IMG/VR virus record: IMGVR_UViG_3300037560_000199
DNA from: an uncultured virus (IMG/VR IMGVR_UViG_3300037560_000199)
Taxonomy: Duplodnaviria > Heunggongvirae > Uroviricota > Caudoviricetes
Length of the DNA: 64,000 bases
Reading direction: 5' to 3' (one strand)
A model generated the notes under the pieces. The model had not been told where the DNA came from. It was given only the letters and a program-made list of their open reading frames with translations, and did not search any database. Positions 2,894 through 37,001 of the stretch are shown here, piece by piece. The position numbers and the translations under genes are program-made. Position 1 is the first letter of the stretch; the number at the start of each line of letters is the position of its first letter.

Positions 2894-4996
2894 GTGGCAA
2901 ATAATAAGTCCAATTTCGATGCAACACAAACAGCACATGACTGGAGAGAGCTAGACGTTTACACCGTCCCCCTTCGCTCTCGATCCAAACGACCAAAACA
3001 CACCAATTGGACCAAGCTGAGGCTCGATGGCGAGCAGCTTGATCGTGCCTTCCAGAAGGGCGACAACATCGGTGCAATTCTCGGTGAGCCCTCGAATGAC
3101 CTCACGGACCTCGATCTTGATCTGCAGGAGGCATGCGAGGTCGCGCCGCACATCATGAGCGAGGAACATGAGACATTCACCTACGGTCACCGTGAAAAAC
3201 GTGAATCACACTTTTTTTACCGCTGCCGTGGAGCTACAACCAAGAAATGGCAGACCAAATCACTGGGAACCATCGTTGAAATTCGCTCCACGGGAGCGCA
3301 GTCGGTGTTGCCCCCGTCCATCCACCCGGATGGTGATCGCTACAACATCGACAACGATATCGAATTCAAGTCCATCCCTAAACGGGAATTAGAAAGGCTT
3401 GTTGATGAAATCGCCATCGCTGCCGTGTTCTTGCACTACTACCCTGAGGAAGGCTCGCGCCACGATTACGCCCATGCCTGCACAGGAGCGTTGTGTCACG
3501 CAGGCTGGCATGCGGACAAGGTCAAGCGTGTCCTGGGTGCAGTGCTCAGCGTGATGCAGTTTGCAGATGAGGATCTGAAGGATCGCAAAGGCACCGTAGT
3601 GAACACCATCGAGCACCATGAGATGGGTGATCGCGTGCAGGGGTTCCGCTCGCTTGAGACGTGGATCGATATGCAGACCATCCAGCAATTACGCAGATGG
3701 TGCGTTCGAGGCAAAGAAGAGGCAGAGCTGCATACTCCCTCCCCAACAGTTTTACTGAAGCGCTTCGCACCTGAAAGGAGATTCAATCAAGAATGGCTCA
3801 ACGTCGATGGGCTCGTTGGTCAGATTGCGGACTGGGCAGGCAAAGCTGCGTATGTGCAGCAGCCAATGTTTAATCTCGCAACAGGGCTCATGTGCACTGC
3901 GCTGGCGAGCTGCAATAACTACCTCGTTGATGGGTGGGATACACCACTGCAACCTTATCTCATGGTCACAGCACCAACAGGTGAGGGGAAGAACGCAGTG
4001 CTCAAAGCCGTCCAGAGATTTGCGAACGAAGTAGGTCTGGAGGAATACGTTCATCAAGAGTTTCAGAGTTACTACGCGATGCTTGACAGACTAGCTGAGC
4101 CTCCCAACATGATATGCCTGCTATGGGACGAGGCAGCTCGACATCTGGCAAGCGCAAAGAACCCAATGACTCAAAGCTTTCAGATGATCAGTCACGTGAT
4201 CTCGTTGTTTGGCAGAGCAAATGAATGGGTGGCTGGATCACCCGGTCGCAAGCAAGAGATCCCTCCCCTCGAACATCCTTTTCTCATCGTCCTCGCCACC
4301 GCTCAACCTGATCAGCTCATGCTGTCGTTAGGAAATACTTCAGAAGAGACAGGTTTCTCTAACAGATTCATAATGTTTGACTCTGGCGAAGAGTTTCCAT
4401 CACGCAATCGACGTCGCACTAAAACATTCCCATCAGCGATCAAGAAACATGCTCGTCTGTTGCGTGATCATGCACCCACGGAAGATTTCACACAGGTCAC
4501 CTGGGATAGCCCGAAGACATACAACATGTTCGATGACTTCGAGGAGACGGCTCGACATCGCACGCACCTAAAAGAGTATGCCTGGGCACGAGCGAACCAG
4601 AATGCGTTGATCATGGCGGGGCTCGTCGCTGTTGGTATCGATGCAGAGAGACCTGTGATCACAGAGGACATGGCTAACTGGGCCATAGAGGTTGTGACGT
4701 GGAGCACGACTGTCTGGACCGAGAAGATACGCTTGGCAGGTGGGGAGACCGTCAACGAGCAGGAGTCGTTCAAGGTGCAAGAGCGCATCAAAAACCCCAG
4801 GAAGTATTTGAAGACAGCGAATTCAGAGACACACCGAAAGCTGATAACTCAGGGCTACATGCCTCACTCAGTACTGATCCAAGTGACTCGGGGGATGAAG
4901 CGTTATCGACGTGAGGAGATCTTAGATGACTTGCATGAAGCGGGGCTAATTGATTCGTCTGACATGGGAGACAACAGAGTCTATTTCATCAAGTAA
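2894..4996 (+). CDS. Bifunctional primase-polymerase fused to DUF3987-like P-loop helicase domain
   Basis: KRP, NIG, DLDLD, HFFY, LPPSIH prim-pol motifs; Walker A APTGEGKN and Walker B LLWDE. Confidence 0.85.
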   Translation: MANNKSNFDATQTAHDWRELDVYTVPLRSRSKRPKHTNWTKLRLDGEQLDRAFQKGDNIGAILGEPSNDLTDLDLDLQEACEVAPHIMSEEHETFTYGHREKRESHFFYRCRGATTKKWQTKSLGTIVEIRSTGAQSVLPPSIHPDGDRYNIDNDIEFKSIPKRELERLVDEIAIAAVFLHYYPEEGSRHDYAHACTGALCHAGWHADKVKRVLGAVLSVMQFADEDLKDRKGTVVNTIEHHEMGDRVQGFRSLETWIDMQTIQQLRRWCVRGKEEAELHTPSPTVLLKRFAPERRFNQEWLNVDGLVGQIADWAGKAAYVQQPMFNLATGLMCTALASCNNYLVDGWDTPLQPYLMVTAPTGEGKNAVLKAVQRFANEVGLEEYVHQEFQSYYAMLDRLAEPPNMICLLWDEAARHLASAKNPMTQSFQMISHVISLFGRANEWVAGSPGRKQEIPPLEHPFLIVLATAQPDQLMLSLGNTSEETGFSNRFIMFDSGEEFPSRNRRRTKTFPSAIKKHARLLRDHAPTEDFTQVTWDSPKTYNMFDDFEETARHRTHLKEYAWARANQNALIMAGLVAVGIDAERPVITEDMANWAIEVVTWSTTVWTEKIRLAGGETVNEQESFKVQERIKNPRKYLKTANSETHRKLITQGYMPHSVLIQVTRGMKRYRREEILDDLHEAGLIDSSDMGDNRVYFIK

Positions 4997-6491: not shown

Positions 6492-6524
6492 TCCACTCAC
6501 TCCTTTCAACTAGAGGCAAAAGCC

Positions 6525-6553
6525 AATATATCACATTAGCGCTACCGTTGCAA
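6525..6553 (-). promoter_or_regulatory. Leftward sigma70 promoter with operator in spacer
   Basis: Minus strand TTGCAA-17 nt-TATATT with TGn extension; operator at 6533-6548. Confidence 0.75.
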
Positions 6554-6583
6554 AACTCGAGATTTCCGCTCAAAAGAAAAAGC

Positions 6584-6611
6584 TTGACACGGCACCGGTG
6601 ATGTGGAGAAT
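6584..6611 (+). promoter_or_regulatory. Rightward sigma70 promoter with operator
   Basis: TTGACA-16 nt-GAGAAT; operator ACGGCACCGGTGATGT 6589-6604. Confidence 0.7.
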
Positions 6612-6646
6612 GGTGTTCTAGTCTACCACCAGAAGGAGCGATCCAG

Positions 6647-7605: not shown

Positions 7606-7621
7606 AGAAGGAGCGAGACAG

Positions 7622-11781: not shown

Positions 11782-11813
11782 GTAGCGGGGGTCCACGTCT
11801 CGCTACTTTTTTT
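11782..11813 (+). terminator. Rho-independent terminator
   Basis: GTAGCG(GG)...(CT)CGCTAC stem followed by T7. Confidence 0.8.
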
Positions 11814-11819
11814 CAGAAC

Positions 11820-11897
11820 TGTGACGTAGTCGATATTAACGGTAGCGCTAACGTGATTTAATAGTGGTTCAGTCAAAGTTAGTTGGAGCGAGACAGA
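11820..11897 (+). promoter_or_regulatory. CRP-box/operator/extended -10 promoter plus conserved leader
   Basis: TGTGA 11820, operator 11839-11854, TGa-TTTAAT 11857, leader TTCAGTCAAAGTTAGTTGGAGCG. Confidence 0.8.
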
Positions 11898-12023
11898 ATG
11901 AAGTACGGAGCAGAGCACTACAAGTGCAGCCTCTCGAAGAAACAGAATCGTCGCAACCGTCGCGTTGCTCGCAGCCAAGAGCGTCGTGTCGGTAAAGCAG
12001 CAGCACAGGAGCGAAACAGATGA
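11898..12023 (+). CDS. Arg-rich 41-aa peptide
   Basis: MKYGAEHYKCSLSKKQNRRNRRVARSQERRVGKAAAQERNR; cassette RBS; ATGA coupling; not in ORF track. Confidence 0.65.
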   Translation: MKYGAEHYKCSLSKKQNRRNRRVARSQERRVGKAAAQERNR

Positions 12024-12382
12024 GCAAGTTCAGTGATCCGATGCCCCGAAGCGAGCACGAGTGCCCCCGGTGCCATCAGGTACTTCAGCCTCTCAGCAAT
12101 GGGATTCCTCACCACTGCAAGGTGAAGGAGTTGCCCTACGAAGAGATGTGCGAAGCGCTGCAGGGTCTGCAGGAGCATTACGGCGAGACGTATGCTCAGC
12201 ACCGCAACGAGACCGCACAGTTCGGTGACTCCTGGCCCGGTGCGCAGATCGAGTTGAGCGAGATGGGCGCAAGCGTCCGCAAGCTCGAAGCTGAGATCGA
12301 AGCGCATCCCGACCACAACCCTCTGCGCAGCTGGGACGAGAAGCTCAGCGATGATTTCACTGACGACGACATCCCGTTTTAG
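12020..12382 (+). CDS. Zn-finger/coiled-coil protein ending in SSB-like tail DDDIPF
   Basis: CPRC...HHC; C-terminus DFTDDDIPF; RBS GGAGCGAAACAG. Confidence 0.75.
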   Translation: MSKFSDPMPRSEHECPRCHQVLQPLSNGIPHHCKVKELPYEEMCEALQGLQEHYGETYAQHRNETAQFGDSWPGAQIELSEMGASVRKLEAEIEAHPDHNPLRSWDEKLSDDFTDDDIPF

Positions 12383-12853: not shown

Positions 12854-12867
12854 GAGGAGCGAAACAG

Positions 12868-13332
12868 ATGACCACGCACGTTGACAGAGCACGCACACTC
12901 GCACGCATTGCGCACCACGGTCAGGTGGACAAGGCAGGCGACGACTACTTCACCGGGCACCTGACGCGAGTTGCTGAGGCAGCTGACTACTACATCGACA
13001 TGAGCGTGGGCTACCTGCACGACATCGTGGAGGACACCGTGGTTACGTTGGTGGATCTCCATACTCTGGACTTTAGCTACGACATCATCGCAGCTGTCCA
13101 GGCACTGACGCACGACAAGGACAGGCATACCTACGCCGAGTACATCACGCACATCATCGGCATTGGAGGCAGCGCTCTGCGGGTGAAGTTCAGCGACACA
13201 CGAGATCATCTGCGCGAGGAGACTATGCATGCCATCACTGCTTCGCTAGTCAAGCGCTACGAGGATGCCTTCGAGCGGCTAGCGCGAGCTAAAGGGAAGG
13301 AGGCAGAGAAGCTCCGAGAAACGGGTTTCTAG
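12868..13332 (+). CDS. HD-domain phosphohydrolase, small alarmone ((p)ppGpp) hydrolase-like
   Basis: AHHGQVDKAG..Y..H...LHDIVEDT...VKFSD. Confidence 0.8.
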   Translation: MTTHVDRARTLARIAHHGQVDKAGDDYFTGHLTRVAEAADYYIDMSVGYLHDIVEDTVVTLVDLHTLDFSYDIIAAVQALTHDKDRHTYAEYITHIIGIGGSALRVKFSDTRDHLREETMHAITASLVKRYEDAFERLARAKGKEAEKLRETGF

Positions 13333-13335
13333 AAG

Positions 13336-13411
13336 TGTGACGCAGTCGCTATTAACGCTAACGCTCCCGTGGTCTAATGTACGCTCAGTCATTCGTTGGA
13401 GCGAAGCTAAG
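13336..13411 (+). promoter_or_regulatory. CRP-box/operator/extended -10 promoter cassette
   Basis: TGTGA 13336, operator 13355-13370, TGg-TCTAAT 13373, GTTGGAGCG. Confidence 0.75.
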
Positions 13412-13798
13412 ATGCAGACCACCAGACAACGTCGAAGAGCAGCCTCGAACAACCGAGAGAACCCCAACCAGAACAAGTGCGGGCTCGCGATTGCTCAAGC
13501 TCTCGGGGTAGACGACAAGGTCCGTTACCTGCACACCATCCGCGACCTCAAGCGTGCAGCCTCTCACTACTTCAGCGTGCGCAGTCGAGCGACTGCTCTG
13601 GGTCTGAAGAAAGGCAAGCGCACCACCGTGGGCTCCATGCGCAGGCACTGCGCACTCCAAGGGGCTCGTTGGTTCCTTGTGTGGACGCCCCTGCACGTGC
13701 TCCTGCTCAATGCCAAGGGCACCACCATCATCGACGCTGACCCGCGCAAGCGCGATTCGCGCCCGGTCCTGGGAGTCTGGGGCTTGTTCCCGAAATAG
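13412..13798 (+). CDS. Basic hypothetical protein with Arg-rich N-terminus
   Basis: MQTTRQRRRAA...; cassette RBS. Confidence 0.7.
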   Translation: MQTTRQRRRAASNNRENPNQNKCGLAIAQALGVDDKVRYLHTIRDLKRAASHYFSVRSRATALGLKKGKRTTVGSMRRHCALQGARWFLVWTPLHVLLLNAKGTTIIDADPRKRDSRPVLGVWGLFPK

Positions 13799-14324: not shown

Positions 14325-14437
14325 AAGCGACGATGTCAATGTGTCAGACGCTGATGCTGGTCGCAGACGACGACCTGCTCAGCGATCTGGACCAAATACT
14401 CGAATCAAAAATGCCGACAAGGCAAGGAGCGAAACAG

Positions 14438-14662
14438 ATGAAAGTTGAAGTAACCGAGACGTTCGGAGTGCGCCGCAGCAAGGACGGCGAGATCGAGATC
14501 CACGAGGGTCATGCAGTCACCGGACTGTGCATCCTCAGAGCCCCCACGCTGGAGCAGGCAGTTGCTGACCTTCGCGAGATGATGGAAGGCGATTCCATTG
14601 GCGAGTTCGAGGTGCACGTGATCGATGTGCATCCGACCAACGACAAAGACTTGCTGTCATGA
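14438..14662 (+). CDS. Hypothetical protein (may also start at GTG 14321)
   Basis: RBS GGAGCGAAACAG-ATG in frame with upstream GTG. Confidence 0.6.
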   Translation: MKVEVTETFGVRRSKDGEIEIHEGHAVTGLCILRAPTLEQAVADLREMMEGDSIGEFEVHVIDVHPTNDKDLLS

Positions 14663-15701: not shown

Positions 15702-15725
15702 ACTAGCGAACACGAGGCGGAATAG

Positions 15726-15818
15726 GGATGTTCCGTTTTGTGACGTGGATCACAGTAACGGTAGCGCTAACGTGTTTTAATAGATGTTCAGTCAAAGTTA
15801 GTTGGAGCAAAACAGAAT
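15726..15818 (+). promoter_or_regulatory. CRP-box/operator/extended -10 promoter plus conserved leader
   Basis: Perfect TGTGA-cgtgga-TCACA 15739-15754, operator 15758-15773, TGt-TTTAAT 15776. Confidence 0.85.
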
Positions 15819-17300
15819 ATGATCTTTTCACCTTTCCAAACCGCGATCTTCGACTGGTGCAAAGCGCACCTCGAAACGGCAGGCGCACTCGTCGTGCAAG
15901 CTGTCGCAGGTTCCGGCAAAACCACCGTCATCGTTGAGGCCGCGAATTTCATTCCTGCAGATCACAAGGCTGCGTTCCTCGCGTTCAACAAGAACACCGC
16001 TGACAAGCTGCGCGAGAAGCTTCCCGAGCACGTCGAAAGCAAAACGCTCAATGCTCTAGGATGGGCGGCATGCCGCTACAACCTTGGCAAAGCGATCAAG
16101 GTCAATGCGAGCAAGACCCGCGACCTGATCCGCAGGCACCTGTCCGACGATGCCGCTGAGGTGATGGGCGACCTGATGAATCTCATCGGCAAGGCGAAGT
16201 CTCACGGTCTCATACCGGTAGGCTACGCGAACCCGACTGGGACCTATGAGGCAACCGACGAGCGCTGGATTGAGCTGATGGACCGGTTCGACATCGACCC
16301 CAACAATGGCACCACCGAAGCTGAGTTTCTAGGATGGGCGAACACGCTGCTCAAGCTAGGGCTCGAAGAAACCCACGAGCTTGACTTCGATGATCAGCTG
16401 TATATGCCCGTCGCACTCGACATGCGCACGTGGGGTTACGACTGGGTCATCGTCGATGAGGCGCAAGATGTCTCCCACGTGCAGCGCACCTTGCTTCGCA
16501 AGTTTCTCAAGCGCGGCGGCAGAGTGATTGCAGTGGGCGATTCTCATCAAGCTATCTACGGGTTTCGCGGTGCAGACTCGCAGTCACTCGCGAACATCGG
16601 GCGACTGTTCAAGGCTGATGAGCTACCGCTCTCGATCAGCTATCGTTGCCCGCGCAAGGTGATCGAGATAGCTAAGCAATTTGTCCCGCACATTGAGTGC
16701 AGCGACACTGCCGAAGAAGGCGAGGTGTTGAACCCGACAGCATGGTCAATCGATTCGTTCAGCGACGATGACCTGATCGTCTGCCGCAACACTGCGCCGC
16801 TGATCGAGCTTGCATACAAGTGCATCGCGGAAGGCAAGAAGGTGCACGTGATGGGTCGCGACATCGGCACCGGTCTGATCAACGTGGTCAAGAAAGCAGG
16901 CGGCAAGCGTATCAGCACCATCGAAGAGCTTCGCCCGAAGCTTGATGCATGGCAACAACGACAGCTGCGCAAGGCGGGCGAAGATGAGGCGAAGCAAGCT
17001 GCAGTAACCGATAAGGTTGACTGCCTCAACGTGGTGATGGCGGGACTCGAAACCATCGCTGAGCTAGTCGCTGCGATTAACAGCATCTTCAGCAATGATG
17101 TGAAGGGAACCACCTTAGCAACGGTGCACAAGGCGAAGGGTATGGAAGCGCCGCGAGTGTTCATACTCGAACCGCACCTCATGCCATCACCTTGGGCGCG
17201 CCAGCCCTGGCAACAAGAGCAGGAAGCCAACCTGCAATACGTTGCCGTGACCCGTGCGCTTGAGACGCTGGTCTACCTTCCTTTGGACATAATCGAATAG
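15819..17300 (+). CDS. UvrD/Rep-family superfamily 1 helicase
   Basis: AVAGSGKT, VDEAQD, VGDSHQAIYGFRGA, SYRCP, TVHKAKGME, YVAVTRA. Confidence 0.95.
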   Translation: MIFSPFQTAIFDWCKAHLETAGALVVQAVAGSGKTTVIVEAANFIPADHKAAFLAFNKNTADKLREKLPEHVESKTLNALGWAACRYNLGKAIKVNASKTRDLIRRHLSDDAAEVMGDLMNLIGKAKSHGLIPVGYANPTGTYEATDERWIELMDRFDIDPNNGTTEAEFLGWANTLLKLGLEETHELDFDDQLYMPVALDMRTWGYDWVIVDEAQDVSHVQRTLLRKFLKRGGRVIAVGDSHQAIYGFRGADSQSLANIGRLFKADELPLSISYRCPRKVIEIAKQFVPHIECSDTAEEGEVLNPTAWSIDSFSDDDLIVCRNTAPLIELAYKCIAEGKKVHVMGRDIGTGLINVVKKAGGKRISTIEELRPKLDAWQQRQLRKAGEDEAKQAAVTDKVDCLNVVMAGLETIAELVAAINSIFSNDVKGTTLATVHKAKGMEAPRVFILEPHLMPSPWARQPWQQEQEANLQYVAVTRALETLVYLPLDIIE

Positions 17301-17317
17301 TCGCTCCAACGGCTGTT

Positions 17318-17342
17318 AGCCCCGGAAACGGGGCTTTTTTTT
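17318..17342 (+). terminator. Rho-independent terminator
   Basis: AGCCCCG-GAAA-CGGGGCT followed by T-run. Confidence 0.9.
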
Positions 17343-17354
17343 GATTGTCAGAAA

Positions 17355-17435
17355 TGTGAACTGCGTCACAGTAACGGGAGCGCTAACGTGAGAGAATAGC
17401 TATTCAATCGAGATAGTGAGTTGGAGCGAAACGGC
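17355..17435 (+). promoter_or_regulatory. CRP-box/operator/extended -10 promoter cassette
   Basis: AAA-TGTGA-actgcg-TCACA 17355-17370, operator 17374-17389, TGa-GAGAAT 17392. Confidence 0.85.
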
Positions 17436-18209
17436 ATGAACAAGAACGGCATCATTCTCTGGGAAGGCAAGTCCAAGCTTGCGGGACATCGCGAGGTTGA
17501 CATCGTTGTGATCGCAGTCGGTCTCAACGATAGCAAGAATCGCAAGACCGGCAACATGCTGCAGACCTATATCCTTCTGCGCGACGTCTCGCCAGTGGAA
17601 GCAATCAAGCTAGGCTTTGACGGTGCGATCTGCGGCAAGTGCGTGCACCGTGGCGACGACGGGTTCAGTGGTCGCACTTGCTACGTGAACGTGGGGCAAG
17701 GTGTCACATCGGTTTGGCTCTGCTTTCAGCGCGGCAATTACGCCAAGGTGCAGAGCACCGAAGAGATTCGCGAAGTCGGTGCGGGTCGCATGGTTCGACT
17801 GGGAACGTACGGCGACCCCAAAGCAGTGCCCGCTGAGATCTGGGAAGCATTGCTCTCTCGTTCAAAGGGTCACACTGGCTACACTCACCAATGGGAAAGC
17901 GCACGCGGCGCAAGATGGCAACGGCTTGTGATGGCAAGTGCGGATACCCCCAACGATGCAACGATGGCGCACGCGAAAGGGTTCCGTACGTTTCGAGTGA
18001 ATCGCGACGGGGTGAAGGCGAAAGGTGAAGTGATATGTCCTGCGAGCGAGGAAGCGGGCAAGAAGCTGCAGTGTGATACGTGCGGCGCATGCAACGGGAC
18101 AGCCACGCAGCGCAAGGGTTCGATTACAATCAAGGCGCATGGTTCGCAGGTGAGCGAGCGCAACCTTGACAAGCTTGATGCGCGGATCATCGCGAGAATG
18201 GCGGCATGA
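17436..18209 (+). CDS. Cys-rich conserved phage protein (GP88-like, possibly Fe-S binding)
   Basis: CGKC...CYV, RLGTYGDP, TGYTHQW, CPAS, CDTCGAC, AHG. Confidence 0.6.
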   Translation: MNKNGIILWEGKSKLAGHREVDIVVIAVGLNDSKNRKTGNMLQTYILLRDVSPVEAIKLGFDGAICGKCVHRGDDGFSGRTCYVNVGQGVTSVWLCFQRGNYAKVQSTEEIREVGAGRMVRLGTYGDPKAVPAEIWEALLSRSKGHTGYTHQWESARGARWQRLVMASADTPNDATMAHAKGFRTFRVNRDGVKAKGEVICPASEEAGKKLQCDTCGACNGTATQRKGSITIKAHGSQVSERNLDKLDARIIARMAA

Positions 18210-19003: not shown

Positions 19004-19263
19004 GCGATCTAATCCAAATCGAACGCGAGCGCTTCGTTGACATCGTGCGCTACAACGTGGTGCTTTGGTCAACCTTCGCAATCGATGATAGCTCAATCTC
19101 TTGCATGCAATACATCGATGACCGTGATGGGTGCGTGCAAGCCCAAGCCATTTACCCCGCGCCCGCGCATCGTGGCGAGCCGGTGGTTCCCATCTATGAG
19201 ACGCGCCCCGAGCATTTCGAGGCTTCGGTTATGCGCGAGCTTCCCGACTACGAAAGCGAGTAG
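19000..19263 (+). CDS. Hypothetical protein
   Basis: GAGG RBS; ATGA coupling. Confidence 0.65.
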   Translation: MSDLIQIERERFVDIVRYNVVLWSTFAIDDSSISCMQYIDDRDGCVQAQAIYPAPAHRGEPVVPIYETRPEHFEASVMRELPDYESE

Positions 19264-19270
19264 CCTATGC

Positions 19271-19335
19271 GCGGCAGCGCTACCGTGATCCACGTCACAG
19301 AACGGGCAACTGCCTGAACTGTGACGGAGATCACA
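19271..19335. promoter_or_regulatory. Operator plus two CRP-type boxes at end of early region
   Basis: GCGGCAGCGCTACCGT 19271-19286; CGTGA-N6-TCACA 19284-19299; TGTGA-N6-TCACA 19320-19335. Confidence 0.7.
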
Positions 19336-19409
19336 CCAGAAAGGTGGCACCCGTCACACCCCGGCTTGACAAACAAGTCGCCGAAGGCCTCCCATTTCAA
19401 TATTTTTGA

Positions 19410-20934: not shown

Positions 20935-21179
20935 CTGCTGAAGAGGAGGAGTACGTCCTCACCAATTACAACTCGACTGCGATTTCGATCTATCGTCTCA
21001 AGCGCAAGCTGGGACTAGATGTCCCTGGTGTCATCTATCGCTTTCGCAGGGGGCATGATCCCTGGCCGGATGATTGGACTCGCTGGGTCCCCCGCAGGTA
21101 GAGGGGGTTGCATCTGGTAGCGTTGCCGTGTAGGCTCCTTGGTAGATGAAGAATTCATGGTAGTAAAGGAGTGTGAAAT

Positions 21180-21383
21180 ATGCGCAAGGCAGATGTGGAA
21201 ACCCTCAATACCCTCTTCGATGAGCTGTGTGCGATCCTCGCCCTCATCGAGAAAGAAGCCCCCGAAGACGACGACGATCACTGGTGCAATCGAGTGTTCA
21301 CTGAGTTCGATAATGCCCTGTGTGGAGTCAACAATGTACTCACCGAGCTGCAGCTGATGGTGCAGAAGGGGGATATCAAATGA
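21180..21383 (+). CDS. Hypothetical protein
   Basis: AAGGAG RBS. Confidence 0.65.
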   Translation: MRKADVETLNTLFDELCAILALIEKEAPEDDDDHWCNRVFTEFDNALCGVNNVLTELQLMVQKGDIK

Positions 21384-23353: not shown

Positions 23354-23578
23354 ATGGCAACACAGACTGAGATTTGCATCATTCCCGATTGCGAGCAAGA
23401 GGTGAGGTATTACCACCTGCACGTCTGCGCGGCGTGCTATTCCGGCTTAGCGAGGTGGCGAGGCAGACCCGTTGCGGACAAACGCCACAACCTGGGGCGC
23501 TGCAATCGGCTGGTCAGCCGCATGGAGTTCATCATGGGGCATCCCAGGCACCATCCGAAGAAGAAGGGGAGCCAGTAG
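23354..23578 (+). CDS. Zn-finger-like small protein
   Basis: CIIPDC...CAACY; GAGG RBS. Confidence 0.6.
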   Translation: MATQTEICIIPDCEQEVRYYHLHVCAACYSGLARWRGRPVADKRHNLGRCNRLVSRMEFIMGHPRHHPKKKGSQ

Positions 23579-23579
23579 T

Positions 23580-23981
23580 ATGAGTTTTACGGTCACCGTC
23601 TACAAAGTAGCTGACAAAGACCTGGGCAGTATGCTCGCGGGTTTGAAGGTTCCTCGTGGGGCTCGCTATGAGCTAACGCACTTCCTCGATGTCGAGATCC
23701 CTGGTGATATCGCTCCGAAGAAACGCAAGAAGAAGGGGGTGAGACGTTCGCATCAGAGCCTCCTCGAATCAAAGCTCACCATGACTGGGAAGCTGGCGAA
23801 GCAGAAGAACAGTGCGGTCGCACGAGGACTGCTGCTGTTCGAGAACTGCGAGGTCGAGGATGGCATCGGCAATGTGAGTGTCCAGGGTTTCCGTGACTAC
23901 CTGAAGACGCATCGGATGCAGAAGCCCGAGCTGCTGCAGAAGCGCATGTTGCGCGATGGGTACGTGGCTTATTTGGAGTGA
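23580..23981 (+). CDS. Basic hypothetical protein
   Basis: GGAG RBS. Confidence 0.6.
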   Translation: MSFTVTVYKVADKDLGSMLAGLKVPRGARYELTHFLDVEIPGDIAPKKRKKKGVRRSHQSLLESKLTMTGKLAKQKNSAVARGLLLFENCEVEDGIGNVSVQGFRDYLKTHRMQKPELLQKRMLRDGYVAYLE

Positions 23982-23985
23982 AGAC

Positions 23986-24480
23986 GTGGACGAGCTGGAA
24001 GATCTGAGGGATCGGTTTTGGAAGGGGGCTTGGGGAGAGGGGGATTGGTGTCCGGTCTGTGATCGTTGGGGCAAGGTCCACAAGCGCAAGCTCAACAAGG
24101 GCATGGTTCGCTGCTTGATCTACCTGTACCAACAATGGCGCAAAGGAGTGAACGAGTACATTCATGTTCCATCGGAGGCACCTCGCCACGTTCTGAATTC
24201 GGCTGAGATAGGCAAGCTCCAGCACTGGGGTCTGGCAGAGAATATGCCCAACGAGGATGATCCAACGAAGAAGCACACAGGCTATTGGATGATCCTTTCT
24301 AAGGGCATTGCCTTCCTAGAGGGGAGAGTCAAAGTGCCGAGCCATGTGTATATCTTCGACAATACACCTTTGGAGTTCACGCAAGAGATGGTCGATCCCA
24401 GCTGGTGTCTGGGTGAGCCTTTCGACTATCGCGAGTTGATGGACGAGAGGGCAAATGATTTAGATGAGGATTTGAAATGA
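23986..24480 (+). CDS. Conserved phage protein with CxxC, possibly winged-helix
   Basis: CPVC...KL.HWGL...GYW...KG..FL.G...VP. Confidence 0.6.
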   Translation: MDELEDLRDRFWKGAWGEGDWCPVCDRWGKVHKRKLNKGMVRCLIYLYQQWRKGVNEYIHVPSEAPRHVLNSAEIGKLQHWGLAENMPNEDDPTKKHTGYWMILSKGIAFLEGRVKVPSHVYIFDNTPLEFTQEMVDPSWCLGEPFDYRELMDERANDLDEDLK

Positions 24481-24971
24481 GCGACGAAGGGGATACACCG
24501 GATCAAGCACAGTCAGCTGATCCGGGGCAATTTGCAGCAGGGGCGATTCGCCCAATGGAATCCCATCCGCGCACGGTGGTGCTGCGCCATGACGATACCG
24601 GGAGTTACCAGATCCTCATGGGTAGTCGCGTGCTTCAGGGTTTCTGTCAGGAGTTCGAGGATGTTACGGGTTGCTCGATGGGTGTGGACCTGCAGCAGCG
24701 CGTGCGAATTCACATCGAGTATATCGGTCGGCGGCAACAGGCGCGCTACCCTGATCGACAGCCTCCTCCTGATGCTCTCATACGTCATCGAGATCCTGGG
24801 GAAGCTGTGATGATTCGTACTACTGAGCAAGGAATCGAACAGGAGGAAGTCGCTCTGTTCAGCTCAGCTCACCCTCAAGGGATAGAGAGGTGGCCGGATA
24901 TAGCGCGAAGGGGATTGCAAGAAGAAATGACCCGGCTACAAGACATGCTCAACTTGCTAGAAGGCATGTGA
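24477..24971 (+). CDS. Hypothetical protein
   Basis: GAGG RBS; ATGA coupling. Confidence 0.6.
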   Translation: MSDEGDTPDQAQSADPGQFAAGAIRPMESHPRTVVLRHDDTGSYQILMGSRVLQGFCQEFEDVTGCSMGVDLQQRVRIHIEYIGRRQQARYPDRQPPPDALIRHRDPGEAVMIRTTEQGIEQEEVALFSSAHPQGIERWPDIARRGLQEEMTRLQDMLNLLEGM

Positions 24972-24975
24972 TACG

Positions 24976-25119
24976 ATTGCGCTTGCGTGGTATCTGTGAT
25001 TCTTCATCTGTTTCACGCTCCGCCACGCAGTGCAATGGCTTCATGGACTAAGTCGTTGCGGGGACCGCTCGTTGCAACAGGAATATTCCACTCCTAGTCG
25101 CGAGCGGTCCCCACTTTTT
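24976..25119 (+). ncRNA. Candidate trans-acting sRNA antisense to early-gene RBS
   Basis: Extended -10 TGa-TACGAT 24969-24977; hairpin 24976-25036 with loop CATCTGTTT(CA)CGCTCC; 12-bp perfect stem 25060-25071/25101-25112 then T5. Confidence 0.6.
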
Positions 25120-25136
25120 ACTAAGGAGGGGAACCC

Positions 25137-25589
25137 ATGAGTCTCGATGACGATATCCGTCAAGCTATCGCAAACAACCTCACTGCCGAGATCGGCACCC
25201 GTCTCAACGAGCGTCTCACTCAGGCTGATGCCGATGCAGAGCGTATAGGCAAGCTGGAGAAGCAGAACAAAGAATACGAGATGAAACACAGCCGCTGGGA
25301 GATTCATCAGTCTGTAGTGACAGCTCTCGATGAACGTGAGGACGAGGTGTTCAAACGCGAACACGAGATGGAGATCCAAGAAGCGAAAATGGAGATCCGT
25401 CAGGAGTGGGCTCGCACGGCGCACGAGGATTCAATGAAGGTTCTGGAGATCGTCTTCAAAGGACCGGCGCAACGACTCGCCTTCGACCTGCAAGGTGGCC
25501 TCAGTGGGTTGATGACTGCAAACGGCATGAGCCTGAGCCCCTACGCTAACCTCAACGGGAAGATCGAGACCGATGGCGAGTCTGGGTGA
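25137..25589 (+). CDS. Coiled-coil hypothetical protein
   Basis: AAGGAGG RBS. Confidence 0.7.
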   Translation: MSLDDDIRQAIANNLTAEIGTRLNERLTQADADAERIGKLEKQNKEYEMKHSRWEIHQSVVTALDEREDEVFKREHEMEIQEAKMEIRQEWARTAHEDSMKVLEIVFKGPAQRLAFDLQGGLSGLMTANGMSLSPYANLNGKIETDGESG

Positions 25590-25785
25590 CTGGATAGTCA
25601 CGTTCGAGTTTAATCGACTCCCCCAGCGCAGACAGACACCGCTAGAGTCACAGTGGGCATTCGAGGAGATCAAGGATGGTTTCTGGCTCAACGCTGACCA
25701 CCAGATCTGCCGTCAGGGTCAAGGTCACTACTGGGTCCCACCTTCACGTATTATGCTGATCGAGCCCCTGGAGAAACAGATGTGA
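25573..25785 (+). CDS. Hypothetical protein
   Basis: Overlap coupling. Confidence 0.55.
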   Translation: MASLGDWIVTFEFNRLPQRRQTPLESQWAFEEIKDGFWLNADHQICRQGQGHYWVPPSRIMLIEPLEKQM

Positions 25786-25997
25786 GCCCATGGACCCACT
25801 CGATCTGCGAGCGCTGCTGGCGATTTCGCGAAGATGGACTTCCCGTTCCGGCGACCATGCGCAATGAGCACAGGTCTCTGGAGAATTGTTGCTTCTGTGA
25901 TCAGAAGCACGAATCTGGTATCTATACCCGGCACGATCCCAAAGACCCAGCTCTCAAATGCGGAGGAGAGCACGATGACGAAGCAAACGCGGGGTAA
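25782..25997 (+). CDS. Cys-rich small protein
   Basis: CERCW...CCFC...SGIY; GTGA coupling. Confidence 0.6.
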   Translation: MSPWTHSICERCWRFREDGLPVPATMRNEHRSLENCCFCDQKHESGIYTRHDPKDPALKCGGEHDDEANAG

Positions 25998-26208
25998 GAA
26001 CGGAAGGTTTGGACCGGTGATAGAGTCACCAGCTGCCGAGAACGATCCGATGCCAACAGAGCGTCTAACGCGAATGGAGTGGAACCCTTGCGGTCACGAC
26101 TTCGCAGTGATGACCCTTACCTCCAGCTACCCAATGCCCAGTCGATGGCACCGATTCTGGTCGCGAGCGCTCATGGGCGTGCACTGGAAATACGTTGACG
26201 ATGCCTGA
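25975..26208 (+). CDS. Hypothetical protein
   Basis: GGAGGAG RBS. Confidence 0.55.
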   Translation: MTKQTRGKNGRFGPVIESPAAENDPMPTERLTRMEWNPCGHDFAVMTLTSSYPMPSRWHRFWSRALMGVHWKYVDDA

Positions 26209-26383
26209 AGACGACTTTCTGAAAACGGCTCCGCAGCCTCCCATAGTGGCGCAGTTCAACGCGGAGAGCGGCGACTGGGAGATTCTGGTCCAAGATCAGT
26301 GGGTCAGTATCTCCCATCTCATCGACTCCCTGATCGAGATGCGCACCATCTTGGAAGCGGAAGTGAAAGGCACATTGCCGTGA
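26201..26383 (+). CDS. Hypothetical protein
   Basis: Overlap coupling. Confidence 0.5.
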   Translation: MPEDDFLKTAPQPPIVAQFNAESGDWEILVQDQWVSISHLIDSLIEMRTILEAEVKGTLP

Positions 26384-26703
26384 GGGATCTCTACTACATG
26401 TATCCGAAGGCTCATCACTCAATGTTTTTACGAACCAAGCAGAGTATCGAAGGGGACTGCATCACCTACGAGCTGAGAGTAGCGCGTGCACTCATGGAGG
26501 ACATGCGCGACATCACGAAGTTCGAGGGATGGTTCAATGTTCGGGGGATGTACTTTCGAGAGCCTTTCGACGCTATCGTTGACTGGGTTGAGCTTCAGCC
26601 TGAGGGGCTCGCCATGCAGCTTCTGAGGCTGGCGTACATTGCAGCTCGACACGAGGAGGGACCATACGGTGAACCGGAGGAGCTTTCTAAAGACACTGAT
26701 TAG
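26380..26703 (+). CDS. Hypothetical protein
   Basis: GTGA coupling. Confidence 0.55.
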   Translation: MRDLYYMYPKAHHSMFLRTKQSIEGDCITYELRVARALMEDMRDITKFEGWFNVRGMYFREPFDAIVDWVELQPEGLAMQLLRLAYIAARHEEGPYGEPEELSKDTD

Positions 26704-26878
26704 TGCAGCGGGTGCAGTTGCTGCTGCTCCCTACGTGCCAGCGATCATTCGCGAGCCAGTGCGTCAATGGGGTGAGCGACAGCAGGCAATGATCGATGCA
26801 CTCGCTGCCAGCATGCTCCAGACCAAAGAGGTGATGACTGCCAACGTGCTGAACCGTGCCTTCGGAGATCCCGATTGA
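26669..26878 (+). CDS. 69-aa twin-arginine-signal protein with capsid-like C-terminal segment
   Basis: GAGGAGG RBS; MNRRSFLK plus hydrophobic stretch; C-terminal LAASMLQTKEVMTANVLNRAF. Confidence 0.75.
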   Translation: MNRRSFLKTLISAAGAVAAAPYVPAIIREPVRQWGERQQAMIDALAASMLQTKEVMTANVLNRAFGDPD

Positions 26879-27048
26879 CCCACTACCTCTGGATCGCAGC
26901 TCACTTTACTCGTTGGTATTTGTGGGGTGCTCTGATTTGGATTTTCGCCTATCCAGAGACTGGATTTTGGACTGCCCTCACCCTGACCCTCATCGTAGCC
27001 GGAATCGAGATTAAATACCTAAATCCCCGCCACTGGACCGTTAATTGA
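26875..27048 (+). CDS. 57-aa membrane protein
   Basis: TTGA overlap; two hydrophobic segments; not in ORF track. Confidence 0.45.
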   Translation: MTHYLWIAAHFTRWYLWGALIWIFAYPETGFWTALTLTLIVAGIEIKYLNPRHWTVN

Positions 27049-27172
27049 CCTAACAGCGGAACTAAGGGGAACTACCGTTCGTCGGATCGAGAACATGCGG
27101 GCTCCAGCCGGTTTCGCCCTTCTAAGTCATTGATGCTTTCGCCCCTCAGCCAGTTCGTTAGACTCCATAGTG

Positions 27173-27192
27173 TATAATGGTAGCGCTACCGT
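27173..27192 (+). promoter_or_regulatory. TATAAT overlapped by operator palindrome
   Basis: TATAAT 27173-27178; ATGGTAGCGCTACCGT 27177-27192. Confidence 0.65.
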
Positions 27193-27231
27193 GGAATGAC
27201 GGTGGTCGCTCTTTAACAGATGGAGAATCAT

Positions 27232-28014
27232 ATGAAAGTGGAATCGAACACGTCGGATATTCCGACAGCGTTTCTGAGGACAGTCTTCGCCAAGGTGCAC
27301 AACCACCTCAAGAAGTCGGAAGGTCACCTCCGTAGCTGGAAGTACTTGAAGGTCACCGTGAGACAGTCCCCAACTAAGAGAGGTTGTTCGGGCTATGCCT
27401 ACTACAACACTGGACCGATCACGTTGACACTTGCTCGTCGTGAGGTTGTCTTTGACGACAAGGTGTATCCGATCCTGACGACTCGAAAGATCGCGTGGAT
27501 CTTCTATCACGAGGTGATGCATGTGTACGGTTACCGGCACAAGCAGTACAGCGACATTCCTAAGGAGGAACTCGATGCTCTCTGTGCTGATTGGCCCGAG
27601 CATCCACCACGGATCGAGAAGAAGTCGAAGCCGAGAGTGGATCATGTAGCGAAGCGAGCTGCGAGTATCGATGCTCGAATCGAGCAATGGGGGACGAAGC
27701 TCAAGCGAGCTGAGAATGCCCTCAAGAAACTCAAGACGCAGAAGAGCTACTACGACAAGAAGCTCTCGGAACCTCGCCCTGAGCCGAAGCCTCGCAAGGC
27801 CGCGAAGCGACGTGGCACGATCTGGGAGGTGGCGAAGGAACACGGATGTCTTGTGGATCAGGAGTTCGGGGTTTACATGGTGTATCCACCCGATGCTCTC
27901 AATGACTCAGAGGACGATCCCTTCGGGGATGACCACTCCTGTGACAGTGCCAAGGAAGCACGCAGGCGCGTGATGGTCTATGCTAGTCTGGCAGAGCCCT
28001 CCCCCGGAGGGTGA
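27232..28014 (+). CDS. Zinc metallopeptidase-like protein (HExxHxxGxxH) with coiled coil
   Basis: HEVMHVYGYRH; GGAG RBS. Confidence 0.7.
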   Translation: MKVESNTSDIPTAFLRTVFAKVHNHLKKSEGHLRSWKYLKVTVRQSPTKRGCSGYAYYNTGPITLTLARREVVFDDKVYPILTTRKIAWIFYHEVMHVYGYRHKQYSDIPKEELDALCADWPEHPPRIEKKSKPRVDHVAKRAASIDARIEQWGTKLKRAENALKKLKTQKSYYDKKLSEPRPEPKPRKAAKRRGTIWEVAKEHGCLVDQEFGVYMVYPPDALNDSEDDPFGDDHSCDSAKEARRRVMVYASLAEPSPGG

Positions 28015-28031
28015 GACACGAAGACGGATCT

Positions 28032-28059
28032 TGGGGCTCCTTGTGAGCCCCATTTTTTT
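28032..28059 (+). terminator. Rho-independent terminator
   Basis: TGGGGCTC-cttgt-GAGCCCCA followed by T7. Confidence 0.85.
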
Positions 28060-28095
28060 GCGCCTATACTGCCGCCCCGTCGAATAGGACCTTCG

Positions 28096-29691
28096 ATGGC
28101 ACAGATCGTCAGCCTCAATTTTGGACTCGTACACCATCCCCCGGAATTCGATTACGATTTCGACTGGGGCGATCTCGATGAGGATATCAAAGCCCAGCTC
28201 CCCGCTGACACGGGTGAAGTCATCCAGATGTTCAGCGAGGAAGAGCTGCATCTCATTCGCTGGCGCATCTGCTGGAAGCGCATGGCGCGGCAGAAGCAGA
28301 TCCCCCCGGAAGTCTTCGAGTCGATGGAGAAGTCGATCTGGCTCATCCGTTCTGGTCGGGGATTCGGCAAGACGTTGACGGGAGCCAACTGGTTGGGCAT
28401 CGAGGCATCCCTTTACGCTTCGTACTACGCAGTCATCTCACCGACACACGACGACGTGCGCTACACCTGCTTTGAAGGTCCAACGGGACTGCTCGCATGT
28501 ATCCCCCCGAAGCTGATCGCAGACCGTAACCAAGCACTTCCCTCCATTACCTTGTGGAACGGCTCGATCATTCGTGGCTTCGCGGGGGATACTCCCGAGC
28601 GCTTGCGGGGACCCCAGCATGCCAAGATCTGGTGCGACGAGATCGCATCGTGGAAGTACCCGCAGGAGGCATGGGACAACCTGAGCTTTGGCCTGCGTCT
28701 GGGCAACAAGCCTCAGATCTGTGTGACAGGGACACCGAAGCCCACTCCCTTCGTGCGTCGGTTGGTGAGTGATAAACGTACAGTCGATGTGGTGGGCAGC
28801 ACCTACGAGAACCGGGCGAATTTGACGGAGTACTTCTTCGACAGCATCGCCAAGTACGAGGGCACGCGAGTCGGTCGCCAGGAGATTCGAGGCGAGCTGC
28901 TGGACCCGGAAGAGGAAGGCTTCGTCAAGCGCAGTCAGTGGAGGCTCTGGCCTCACAAGAAGTCACTCCCGAAGTTCAGCTTCATCGTGCTGTCCATCGA
29001 CCCCGCGTTCACCGAGAAGAACTTCGACAAGCGCAAGCAGGAGAATGATCCGACAGCCTGCAGTGCGTGGGGTGTGTTCATGATCCCGCGTCAGGACAAG
29101 GCACCGCTCCCGCATGTCATGCTGCTCGATGCGTGGGAAGATTGGCTTGGCTTCCCGGCTCTCGTGCGCCGGATCAAGAAGGAGAAAATGTACACCTATG
29201 GTGATGTTGACGAGCCCTACCTGAGGCCAAAGATCATCCCGAAGAGTCAGCGAGCCAAGCACCAGGGGAGAGTGCCTGACATCATTTTGATCGAGGAGAA
29301 GGCATCTGGAATCAGCCTGAGACAGCAGCTTGCGGAAGAGAATATCTTGACGCACGGCTACAATCCGGGTAATGAAGATAAGCTAACGCGACTACATTAC
29401 GTGTCGCCTATGTTTGCTGCCGGTCGAGTCTGGGCTGTTGAATCGGAAATCAACCCTGGCGCGTTCAATACGCACCACGATCCCCTCATCTCCCAAGTCT
29501 GCTCCTACGTGGGTCCCGGCTCTACTGAGCGGGACGATTTACTCGACACTGCCACTCAGGGACTGCGACTCCTTATGGATCAGTTCTTTGGCCCGTTCAC
29601 CGTCGTGGACAACGTCGAGGCACGCGAGAGAGCCAAAGCGAAGCAGATTGCGGAGCGTCGGTTGAAGAAGCGGAACAACCCTTATGACTGA
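28096..29691 (+). CDS. terL: Terminase large subunit
   Basis: GRGFGKT, RLRGPQ, WCDE, TGTPK, SIDPA nuclease motif, IEEKASG, DDLLD. Confidence 0.95.
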   Translation: MAQIVSLNFGLVHHPPEFDYDFDWGDLDEDIKAQLPADTGEVIQMFSEEELHLIRWRICWKRMARQKQIPPEVFESMEKSIWLIRSGRGFGKTLTGANWLGIEASLYASYYAVISPTHDDVRYTCFEGPTGLLACIPPKLIADRNQALPSITLWNGSIIRGFAGDTPERLRGPQHAKIWCDEIASWKYPQEAWDNLSFGLRLGNKPQICVTGTPKPTPFVRRLVSDKRTVDVVGSTYENRANLTEYFFDSIAKYEGTRVGRQEIRGELLDPEEEGFVKRSQWRLWPHKKSLPKFSFIVLSIDPAFTEKNFDKRKQENDPTACSAWGVFMIPRQDKAPLPHVMLLDAWEDWLGFPALVRRIKKEKMYTYGDVDEPYLRPKIIPKSQRAKHQGRVPDIILIEEKASGISLRQQLAEENILTHGYNPGNEDKLTRLHYVSPMFAAGRVWAVESEINPGAFNTHHDPLISQVCSYVGPGSTERDDLLDTATQGLRLLMDQFFGPFTVVDNVEARERAKAKQIAERRLKKRNNPYD

Positions 29692-36071: not shown

Positions 36072-37001
36072 ATGGCTGTCCCAATGCGATCAACTGACTT
36101 CCGGTCGATTGTTGAACCGATTCTCAACGAGACGTTCGACGGAATTTATAACCAGCGTGCGGACGAGTGGAAGGGAGTTTTCACGGAGCGACAGGGTACG
36201 CCCCGGAGCTACCACGAAGAGCCCGTCCTGTTCGGTTTCAACGCTGCGCCCGAGATGCCGGATGGCACCCCGGTCACGTTCGATGCTGGCGGGGTGCTGT
36301 TCATTCAGCGCTACGTCTATCGCGTCTTCGGTCTCGCGTTTGCGATGACGAAGGTGCTGGTCGAAGACGGTGACCACATCCGCATCGGCACGATCTACTC
36401 CGAGCACCTTGCTCAGTCGATGATCGAGACGAAGGAAACGCTCTGCGCCAACATCTTCAACCGCGCCTTCAACGGTGCGTTTGTCGGTGGCGACGGTGTA
36501 GCGTTGAACGTCACGAACCATCCGATTGCGCCAGGAGGCTCAGCGGGTGGTGTGTTCTCGAACCTACTGACGACTGCTGCGGCTCTGTCGCAAACGTCGC
36601 TTGAGCAGTTGCTCATTCAGATCCGCAACGCTGTTGACAACAACGGCAAGCGCATCCGACTGTCGCCGCTCAAGATCGTCACGGGTCCGAGCCAAGTCTT
36701 CCAGGCTGAGGTGCTGTTGAAGTCGGTCCTGCGTGCAGGCACGGCGAACAACGACATCAACCCAATCCTCTCGATGGGTCTGCTCGACCAAGGTCAAGCG
36801 AACCTGTCCCGTATCACCTCCACGACTGCATGGTGGGTCCAGACGGACGCTCCTCGTGGTCTGCAGATGATGATGCGTCGGGGACTGGAGAAGAGCATGG
36901 AAGGCGACTTCGAGACGGACTCGATGCGCTACAAGTCCACCGAGCGATACATTCCAGACTGGACCGACCCTCGTACGGTCTTCGGTACGCCTGGACTGTA
37001 G
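36072..37001 (+). CDS. Major capsid protein (HK97 fold, inferred)
   Basis: 309 aa; SM..TKE...N..N.AF, GGDG..L....HP, NNDINP, DFET, D.R...G..G. Confidence 0.9.
   Translation: MAVPMRSTDFRSIVEPILNETFDGIYNQRADEWKGVFTERQGTPRSYHEEPVLFGFNAAPEMPDGTPVTFDAGGVLFIQRYVYRVFGLAFAMTKVLVEDGDHIRIGTIYSEHLAQSMIETKETLCANIFNRAFNGAFVGGDGVALNVTNHPIAPGGSAGGVFSNLLTTAAALSQTSLEQLLIQIRNAVDNNGKRIRLSPLKIVTGPSQVFQAEVLLKSVLRAGTANNDINPILSMGLLDQGQANLSRITSTTAWWVQTDAPRGLQMMMRRGLEKSMEGDFETDSMRYKSTERYIPDWTDPRTVFGTPGL

Follow-up and report, generated by a model that had tools for sequence, protein, structure and literature searches.

What lies between two genes of an uncultured tailed phage: the plain end of an operon, or an RNA directed at the phage's own messengers? 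The question is raised by a 165-nt gap (24972-25136) that separates the open reading frame (ORF) 24477-24971 from ORF 25137-25589 in a 64,000-nt stretch of Caudoviricetes DNA (IMG/VR record IMGVR_UViG_3300037560_000199), hereafter the window. An earlier note had described the gap as encoding a stand-alone, middle-phase small RNA (sRNA) whose loop is antisense to the ribosome-binding sites (RBSs) and start codons of early genes and which shuts off their translation. We find that the gap very probably holds a real, conserved and structured RNA element. On balance, sequence comparison leads us to read this element as a candidate trans-acting translational repressor that carries two seed loops and addresses the phage's own genes.

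A conserved three-hairpin element

The + strand of the gap folds into three hairpins, H1, H2 and a terminator hairpin H3 followed by five T residues (T5). H1 (24976-25036) consists of a stem (24976-24990/25023-25036) with one bulged U and a 32-nt loop (24991-25022). H2 (25037-25054) is a hairpin of 5 pairs, GGCUU-CAUGGACU-AAGUC. H3 with its U tract (25060-25119) resembles an intrinsic terminator, in which a perfect 12-bp lower stem (25060-25071/25101-25112) bears an upper stem-loop and is followed by AC and T5 (25115-25119). The H1 stem, its 32-nt loop, the 12-bp stem and T5 all lie exactly where the earlier note had put them. Within the H1 loop, the conserved pyrimidine-rich seed region UGUGAUUCUUCAUCUGUUUCACGCUCC (24995-25021) includes TTCATCTGTTT-CA-CGCTCC, read from the sequence at 25003-25021. 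A small inner helix (24995-24999/25013-25017) leaves 25000-25012 unpaired with a probability of at least 0.9. The apical motif of H3, UUCCACUCCUAG (25086-25097), is a putative second anti-Shine-Dalgarno (anti-SD) seed and complements the translation initiation region (TIR) of a gene before the terminase in relatives.

Folding of the region gave -67.9 kcal/mol (z = -6.3), and 0 of 200 shuffles folded as well. The minus strand folds equally well (z about -6.3), so energy alone cannot assign the strand; the G-U pairs of the stems would be A·C on the opposite strand, and the + strand is therefore the folded one. Rfam returned 0 matches at the gathering threshold in the whole window, the C4 antisense RNA included. 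At E values up to 10, the only matches on 24900-25200 were mir-2076 (18.4 bits vs 90) and CRISPR-DR10 (14.2 vs 39), both at chance level.

The element is present in L005, a relative whose terminase is 92% identical to that of the window, and also in the metagenome contigs L106, L107/L108 and L109, which were reached via the adjacent 150-aa protein. A covariance-model search covered 87 sources (1.26 Mb), among them 43 terminase-related and 40 helicase-related loci, and detected full-length copies only in the window, L005, L106, L107, L108 and L109. Given that matches are confined to 6 of the 87 sources and that the element has no DNA match in five near-complete relatives, it belongs to a narrow clade. 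Within that clade, the covariance-model and folding check proposed in the earlier note bore out both the fold and the loop.

Structure and conservation were counted on five distinct sequences (alignments A3 and A4). On these, RNAalifold returns three hairpins, and 97.8% of the pair cells are standard pairs, vs 32-46% in slid-partner controls. Double compensatory changes occur at 3 pairs, one in H2 and two in H3, and wobble-only changes (G-U/G-C or A-U) at 8. H1 comprises 15 pairs, 10 of them invariant, 3 with G-U/G-C or U-A/U-G changes only, and 2 with unpaired cells in two of the five sequences. All cells (100%) of the 5 H2 pairs are paired, with one full compensatory change from U-A to C-G (two sequences) and one G-U to G-C change; the 20 pairs of H3 show 2 double compensatory changes (in L106) and 4 wobble changes. 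The covariation score was reached by 18 of 500 column shuffles. Coming from five related sequences, this covariation is modest and appears consistent with the fold.

The 28-nt core of the H1 loop, TGTGATTCTTCATCTGTTTCACGCTCCG, is invariant in all five distinct sequences, as are the H3 motifs UCCACUCCU and TCCACTCCT across the element-bearing sequences; the flanking proteins are only 53-65% identical while both loop motifs stay fixed. Relatives differ by indels of 1-3 nt, and neither strand therefore carries a conserved ORF. The element behaves as one unit, and its 5' edge is sharp. In L109, element homology begins exactly at 24972-24975, the upstream gene sharing only a 197-nt, 74%-identical stretch with that of the window, and run X7 has a contig that lacks the upstream gene (skipped or deleted) and in which the join lands at 24975.

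Loop complementarity to start regions of phage genes

Three segments of the H1 loop are antisense to start regions on the + strand of the window: 24995-25012 to the TIR of ORF 27232, 25003-25021 to a TIR common to early genes, and 25009-25021 to the TIR of ORF 21180. The TIR of ORF 27232 (AACAGAUGGAGAAUCAUA, 27215-27232), which runs from the SD (GGAG, 27222-27225) to the AUG, pairs with 24995-25012 over 18 contiguous bp with 2 G-U, or over 16 bp with 1 G-U. This is the best pairing among 89 start regions, and 0 of 400 composition-matched shuffled loops reach 18 bp; the net pairing energy is -6.4 kcal/mol. ORF 27232-28014 encodes a 260-aa protein with an HExxH motif directly before the large terminase gene (TerL, 28096-29691). 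It has a weak SprT-like lead (score 0.79, under the bar) and window-type homologues of 60-81% identity (P0002-P0004), and a scan of IMG/VR for the DNA of such homologues returned only the window's own genome.

We compared this locus with the four loci L005, L106, L107 and L108, which represent three distinct sequences (L107 and L108 match here). Homology to the window breaks at 27218, within 27215-27232, and resumes near 27621-27646. In all four, the pre-TerL gene has a different N-terminal half and a start region of the form ttaaca(a/g)CTAGGAGTGGAA(a/t)tATG, in which CTAGGAGTGGAA is the complement of the H3 apical motif and the sole exact + strand copy in each locus. The match between H3 and the TIR is exact over 15 nt in L005 (CAGCTAGGAGTGGAA; 0 of 200 shuffles), spans 11 nt in L106, and reaches 12 bp with one G-U in L107/L108, where an A to G change in the loop is absorbed as U-G; the net energies of these H3 pairs are -4.6 to -8.0 kcal/mol. 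Contigs of four DNA runs gave mosaic joints; one of them, from run X5, presents a third combination, being window-like up to 27227 (AACAGATGGAGAA, an H1-type TIR) and then continuing with the L005-type coding start, and it keeps 13 nt of H1 complementarity. The pre-TerL TIR is H3-complementary in L005, L106, L107 and L108, and H1-complementary in the window and the X5 contig. One gene keeps complementarity to the RNA via different start regions and different loops, and this target swap appears to us the strongest argument for functional pairing. Mismatched positions in the duplexes can be read as G-U, in keeping with two RNAs that pair more than with an inverted repeat in DNA.

The pre-terminase gene has other features of its own. 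Around its mosaic joint (window 27218/27621-27646; L005 5845-6624), the C-terminal half, residues ~123-257, is common at 48% identity, and the window-type protein reads HEVMH at the motif position of the L005-type HDMSH. A -10-like TATAAT and a leader hairpin (27173-27210) belong to the gene itself, as does a terminator (28032-28052).

The claim that the loop is antisense to the SD and AUG of the genes at 12020, 12868 and 14438 also held. The sequence GGAGCGAAACAGATG occurs exactly at 12008, 12856 and 14426, each copy closing in the ATG of an ORF: 12020-12382 (TIR 12008-12022), 12868-13332 (TIR 12856-12870; HD-phosphohydrolase-like by PHROG) and 14438-14662 (TIR 14426-14440). With one further match at 7610 (1 mismatch) and one at 6635 (2 mismatches), the total is 5, all on the + strand, vs 0.17 expected, and 0 of 100 shuffles reach 5. 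The duplex of the early TIR with 25003-25021 has 16 bp and a 2-nt bulge, with a hybrid energy of -23 kcal/mol. The bulged complement GGAGCGNNAAACAGATG is exact on the minus strand at 25005-25021 (2 matches vs 0.20 expected; 3 of 100 shuffles reach 2). With the opening of both partners accounted for, net pairing energies ranged from -10.8 to -13.3 kcal/mol among the tested early starts that are exact or carry 1 mismatch; the 11160 variant gave -7.6 kcal/mol. All net energies come from core duplexes; full-length RNAduplex plus opening energies was discarded, since its duplexes were over-extended.

Variants of the early TIR lie on the + strand at 6635, 7610, 11146, 12386, 13398, 15243, 15804 and 17421. 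By eye, in a crude start-site table, GGAGCG or GGAGCA with an A-rich spacer marks about 11 gene starts between 6.6 and 17.4 kb (6647, 7622, 11160, 12020, 12399, 12868, 13412, 14438, 15261, 15819 and 17436). Across IMG/VR, the early TIR has 56 exact matches, about the chance number, and these fall only in the window's own genome and in unrelated contigs, one of which (G003) holds two. The five near-complete relatives that do not carry the element have 0 exact and 0 one-mismatch copies, with 3 two-mismatch matches in 2 genomes. As a separate observation, the 3' untranslated region (3'UTR) behind the helicase gene (17301-17342) contains UCGCUCC, the complement of the early-start GGAGCGA, followed by a clean terminator, GCCCCGgaaaCGGGGC with T8.

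The remaining target class is GGAGUGUGAAAUA (21168-21180, + strand), which extends from the SD to the A of the AUG of ORF 21180-21383 (67 aa) and pairs with 25009-25021 over 13 bp, 2 of them G-U. The same 13-mer stands at the same TIR in L106, the sole relative locus that reaches this region. The leader of ORF 21180 also contains a second site, AGAUGAAGAAU (21144-21154), an 11-nt exact complement of 24999-25009 that L106 keeps with one change. Of the 89 start regions, 6 pair over at least 11 bp, vs 0.59 expected (1 of 400 shuffles). When the RNA was compared with the whole + strand, 21 stretches of at least 12 bp were found, 5 of which lie, by our own reading, on start regions, all via the H1 loop; the reversed-genome control gave 7 stretches. 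A 15-nt complement (1 G-U) of the H1 3' arm at 53095-53109, within ORF 52433-54007, was set aside as chance, as 3.5% of shuffles reach 14 nt. The H3 loop has no TIR match within the window itself.

These matches make the target set wider than the early genes, and early shut-off is at most part of the role. The set given in the earlier note was right for the early genes and incomplete for the rest: ORF 27232, with its better pairing, and ORF 21180 have to be added, as does the H3 loop as a second seed in relatives. The H1 seed offers an invariant core (5 of 5 sequences), an open segment (25000-25012) and matches that fall on SD and AUG. We propose that 24972-25122 specifies a + strand RNA of roughly 135-150 nt with three hairpins and an intrinsic, probably leaky terminator, and that this RNA would accumulate as a discrete species through termination of the upstream operon, processing or a weak promoter of its own. 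Its two conserved pyrimidine-rich loops would act as seeds that pair in trans with the SD and AUG of the phage's own mRNAs, and this pairing would block 30S binding and so repress translation. The H1 loop would address the early and replication-region genes that have the common start region GGAGCGAAACAGAUG, together with the 67-aa ORF 21180 and the 260-aa gene 27232 that immediately precedes the large terminase. For the pre-terminase counterpart in the closest relatives, the H3 terminator loop would address the start region instead.

Origin of the RNA and rival explanations

At the 5' edge of the element, TGATACGAT (24969-24977, + strand) resembles an extended -10. Its TGA is the stop codon of ORF 24477-24971, and its hexamer, TACGAT (24972-24977), reads TAnGAT in all five distinct sequences. 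The TG is lost in L109, there is no -35 upstream, the consensus promoter scan lists nothing at the element, and TGATACGAT is unlike the phage's own promoter modules, which consist of a -35, a spacer with the palindrome GGTAGCGCTACC and a -10, often with TGTGA-N6-TCACA. The extended -10 of the earlier note thus stands as a motif and at most a putative promoter, and "stand-alone" and "middle-phase" are conjectural labels: the RNA may just as well be a leader, or stem from the upstream operon as its 3' end, set free by termination or processing. We favour its release by partial termination or processing of upstream transcripts, a weak promoter of its own being possible. The box GCGCTnnCGTGG, found in the H1 5' arm and in the leader at 27183, was considered as a shared promoter/+1 region; in relatives it forms the spacer of TTGACA-N17-TATAAT, and it was rejected as a promoter for the RNA because the element lacks the flanking hexamers.

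The promoter modules themselves form a recurrent unit of about 95 nt, comprising promoter and leader, that is repeated before early transcription units (11805-11900, 13321-13414, 15724-15821 and 17340-17438) and again at 6499-6590, 19237-19330, 21110-21182 and 27143-27234. Each runs in the order TGTGAC..., TAACGGTAGCGCTAACGTGA, TTTAAT, short leader and stereotyped RBS. In relatives, the TAACGGTAGCGCTAACGTGA box of the module serves as the 17-nt spacer in promoters of the form TTGACA...TATAAT. The palindrome GGTAGCGCTACC is perfect and possibly an operator, and GCGCTNNCGTGG occurs 22 times at up to 1 mismatch, vs 5.7 expected. TGTGA-N6-TCACA palindromes, which we take to resemble the CRP consensus, lie just upstream of or inside several modules (15740-15760, 17355-17375 and 19320-19345).

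At the 3' end, H3 has the parts of an intrinsic terminator, with a G+C-rich 12-bp stem that covaries in L106, AC and T5. A simple terminator scan omits it on account of the short U tract and large loop. The tract is only T4 in L106 and L107, so termination at H3 is probably leaky. The downstream gene starts 18 nt behind the T run, with no room for a promoter of its own there, and must therefore be transcribed by read-through of H3. As the earlier note had remarked, the RBS of this gene differs from the early one; the region 25124-25136 (CUAAGGAGGGGAAC) resembles the H3-loop target CUAGGAGUGGAA. On read-through transcripts, the H3 loop might mask the RBS of gene 25137 in cis.

Repression in trans, the reading that we prefer, has to be set against a number of observations that count against it. 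Composition itself favours pairing between pyrimidine-rich loops and purine-rich start regions. In each seed, about half the nucleotides are locked in a helix, at an opening cost of 5-11 kcal/mol. Taken on their own, the H3 matches of L106 (11 nt) and L107 (10 nt Watson-Crick) are at chance level, and so is the 13-bp match at 21168 for the whole window. As copies of a single motif, the four best early TIRs are not independent; since they make up four of the six long-pairing start regions, we count three independent target classes. A looser, energy-based shuffle test was marginal (p about 0.02-0.04), and a whole-window RNAduplex scan gave its best score at a non-RBS site (29647, -31.8), with RBS sites accounting for 6 of the 25 highest-scoring sites. 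The gap is 87% identical in L005 and the window, which is not exceptional alone, because their DNA is 74-89% identical overall. No early TIR occurs in the loci of the element-bearing relatives, whose contigs end before the early genes. Among the runs containing positions 23500-28100 of the window, none is on record as RNA, and the host of the phage is uncultured.

Several of these observations would suit an element that is a structured 3' end only, its terminator and stabilising hairpins closing the operon that ends at 24971 and its loop complementarity being a by-product of composition. The architecture of H3 with T5, the marginal energy statistics, the chance level of the shorter matches and the runs, none of them recorded as RNA, are all in keeping with this explanation, which we nevertheless hold to be unlikely: no shuffle attains the 18-bp match (0 of 400) or the 15-nt match (0 of 200), the two matches involve different phages and different loops yet hit the start region of one and the same gene, and a mere stabiliser has no need of an invariant 28-nt loop. 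We give a somewhat smaller chance to a cis-acting leader or attenuator of gene 25137-25589, whose loops would bind a factor that sets read-through or would mask the downstream SD. Such a leader would explain why the element stays with the 150-aa gene even in sequences whose upstream gene is replaced (L109) or deleted (X7 contig), and it agrees with the lack of promoter space between T5 and the RBS, with the weak U tract (T4-T5) and, by our own reading, with partial complementarity of the H3 loop to the downstream SD region CUAAGGAGGGG. It leaves the long matches to distant start regions unexplained, however, and the search for a conserved antiterminator pairing came up empty; the sole alternative, a fold without the 3' arm whose helix GUUGC/GCAAC is not kept in L005, falls 19 kcal/mol short of the terminator fold. 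By analogy, a leader would be compatible with action in trans, since leader-derived sRNAs exist.

Two further explanations concern the DNA and the opposite strand. That the element acts at the DNA level, as inverted repeats for recombination or module exchange or as a protein-binding site, would accord with the exact positions of the homology breaks, at 27218 in the 27215-27232 site and at the element's 5' edge, and with stereotyped start regions that sit at the joints of gene cassettes. Stem substitutions that keep pairing via G-U are meaningless in duplex DNA, though, and G-U also accommodates the imperfect positions within the 18-bp and 12-bp matches, so that we consider this improbable. 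We give hardly any credence to a real RBS (GGAGCGTGAAACAGATG) with a small gene on the minus strand. A 16-codon frame does follow the GGAGCGTGAAACAGATG motif, but a 1-nt indel in L005 and L107 shifts it, the peptide is not conserved, the neighbouring genes are all on the + strand, and the G-U pairs favour the + strand fold.

Genome setting, known antisense RNAs and wider meaning

The window encodes a family-A DNA polymerase on the minus strand (231-2765), a primase (2894-4996), a helicase (15819-17300), TerL and a major-head-like gene (36072-37001). Nearly all of its genes, including all those around the element, are on the + strand. Most window proteins have no Pfam or PHROG family, and apart from the weak SprT-like lead for ORF 27232, Pfam, PHROGs and Atlas gave no function for the element-flanking genes or the targets. 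No tRNA genes were found in the window, and blastn against public phage records gave no match. DNA runs containing the window sequence are labelled marine sediment metagenomes, and one IMG/VR contig, at 100% identity, represents the same genome. The window is probably near a whole genome, because a related contig of 63.9 kb (G005) has terminal repeats.

By mechanism, the closest known system would be the c4 RNA of phages P1 and P7, with bacterial anti-SD sRNAs also close. c4 uses two separate loops as pairing sites, and Rfam has a C4 model (RF01695). An antisense RNA, c4 belongs to the immI operon of these phages (Citron and Schuster 1990, as cited in an excerpt of PMC8201110). The likeness would lie in a phage-encoded, structured non-coding RNA that is encoded on the same strand as its target and nearby, yet acts in trans, and that represses a phage gene through two exposed loops pairing with the mRNA around its RBS. 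By contrast, c4 has no sequence or structure homology with the element (no Rfam match even at E up to 10) and controls one operon, icd-ant, for immunity in a temperate phage. The phage of the window looks lytic, with its own DNA polymerase, primase and helicase (integrase was not sought), and its element would address many genes via a common start region, together with a gene of the packaging region.

Among bacterial trans-acting sRNAs, those of the RsaE/RoxS and CpxQ types have C/U-rich anti-SD seeds or derive from 3'UTRs. The element resembles them in its terminator hairpin and U tail, its conserved single-stranded pyrimidine seed, its multiple candidate targets at SD and AUG, its possible origin as an mRNA 3' end and its potentially regulatory terminator loop. 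Unlike them, it is encoded by a phage, and its putative targets are that phage's own stereotyped start regions. The terminator loops of bacterial sRNAs have a regulatory role "likely without base-pairing" (PMC11979758, in excerpt), whereas the H3 loop shows complementarity over 11-15 nt. The sRNAs and antisense RNAs of phages listed in an excerpt of PMC12197685 are sar of P22, OOP and aQ of lambda, PreS, VpdS and DicF. Like the element, sar and OOP are phage-encoded, and the two repress phage genes by pairing; sar, OOP and aQ, however, are true cis-antisense RNAs transcribed opposite their targets, whereas the putative targets of the element lie 2-18 kb away on its own strand. PreS, VpdS and DicF differ in acting mainly on host mRNAs. 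No RNA listed in that excerpt is described as matching a start region common to a block of phage genes, and the literature covered, partly as excerpts and with subscription journals outside its scope, describes no phage RNA that matches a start region common to many of the phage's own genes.

Distant relatives bear on how far such an arrangement might extend. They have a stereotyped early start region of their own, AGGAGCACGACAATG; with up to 3 mismatches allowed, G011 contains 8 forward matches to it and G009 contains 7. Read as another code (AGGAGCACGACAAUG), it would have a matching seed, GUAGUGCUCCU, by the terminator in a 3'UTR. This seed lies between a stop codon and an intrinsic terminator, before the helicase promoter (L117 9783-9840, L114 9787-9845 and L119 9825-9880), and is exactly complementary to AGGAGCACTAC-type starts along 11 nt. 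Overall, complementary stretches are not enriched for the 3'UTR seeds relative to the reversed control (34 vs 37, 27 vs 25 and 4 vs 0), and these sequences give only a hint of a parallel anti-RBS element.

As a tentative proposal, which we think may well fail when all its parts are taken jointly, the findings could reflect an "address-code" form of translational control. A stereotyped start region would label blocks of genes, and a single small RNA would carry the matching anti-codes in two loops; genes would switch regulon or loop by swapping a start region of about 15 nt at a mosaic joint, as the pre-terminase gene appears to have done; distant relatives would use another code; and anti-RBS RNAs would be a widespread, undescribed layer of phage timing. 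Temporal control in virulent phages is usually credited to promoters, to sigma factor or RNA polymerase switches, and to protein translational repressors such as RegA of T4. The two-loop design and the natural target swap offer ready-made compensatory pairs, and the element could serve as a small programmable repressor part. If the proposal is true, the phage would possess a compact timer that works post-transcriptionally: one RNA would silence a block of genes via a common ribosome-binding "address" and would gate a packaging-region gene as well, and this would explain why near-identical 15-nt start regions are kept on unrelated genes.

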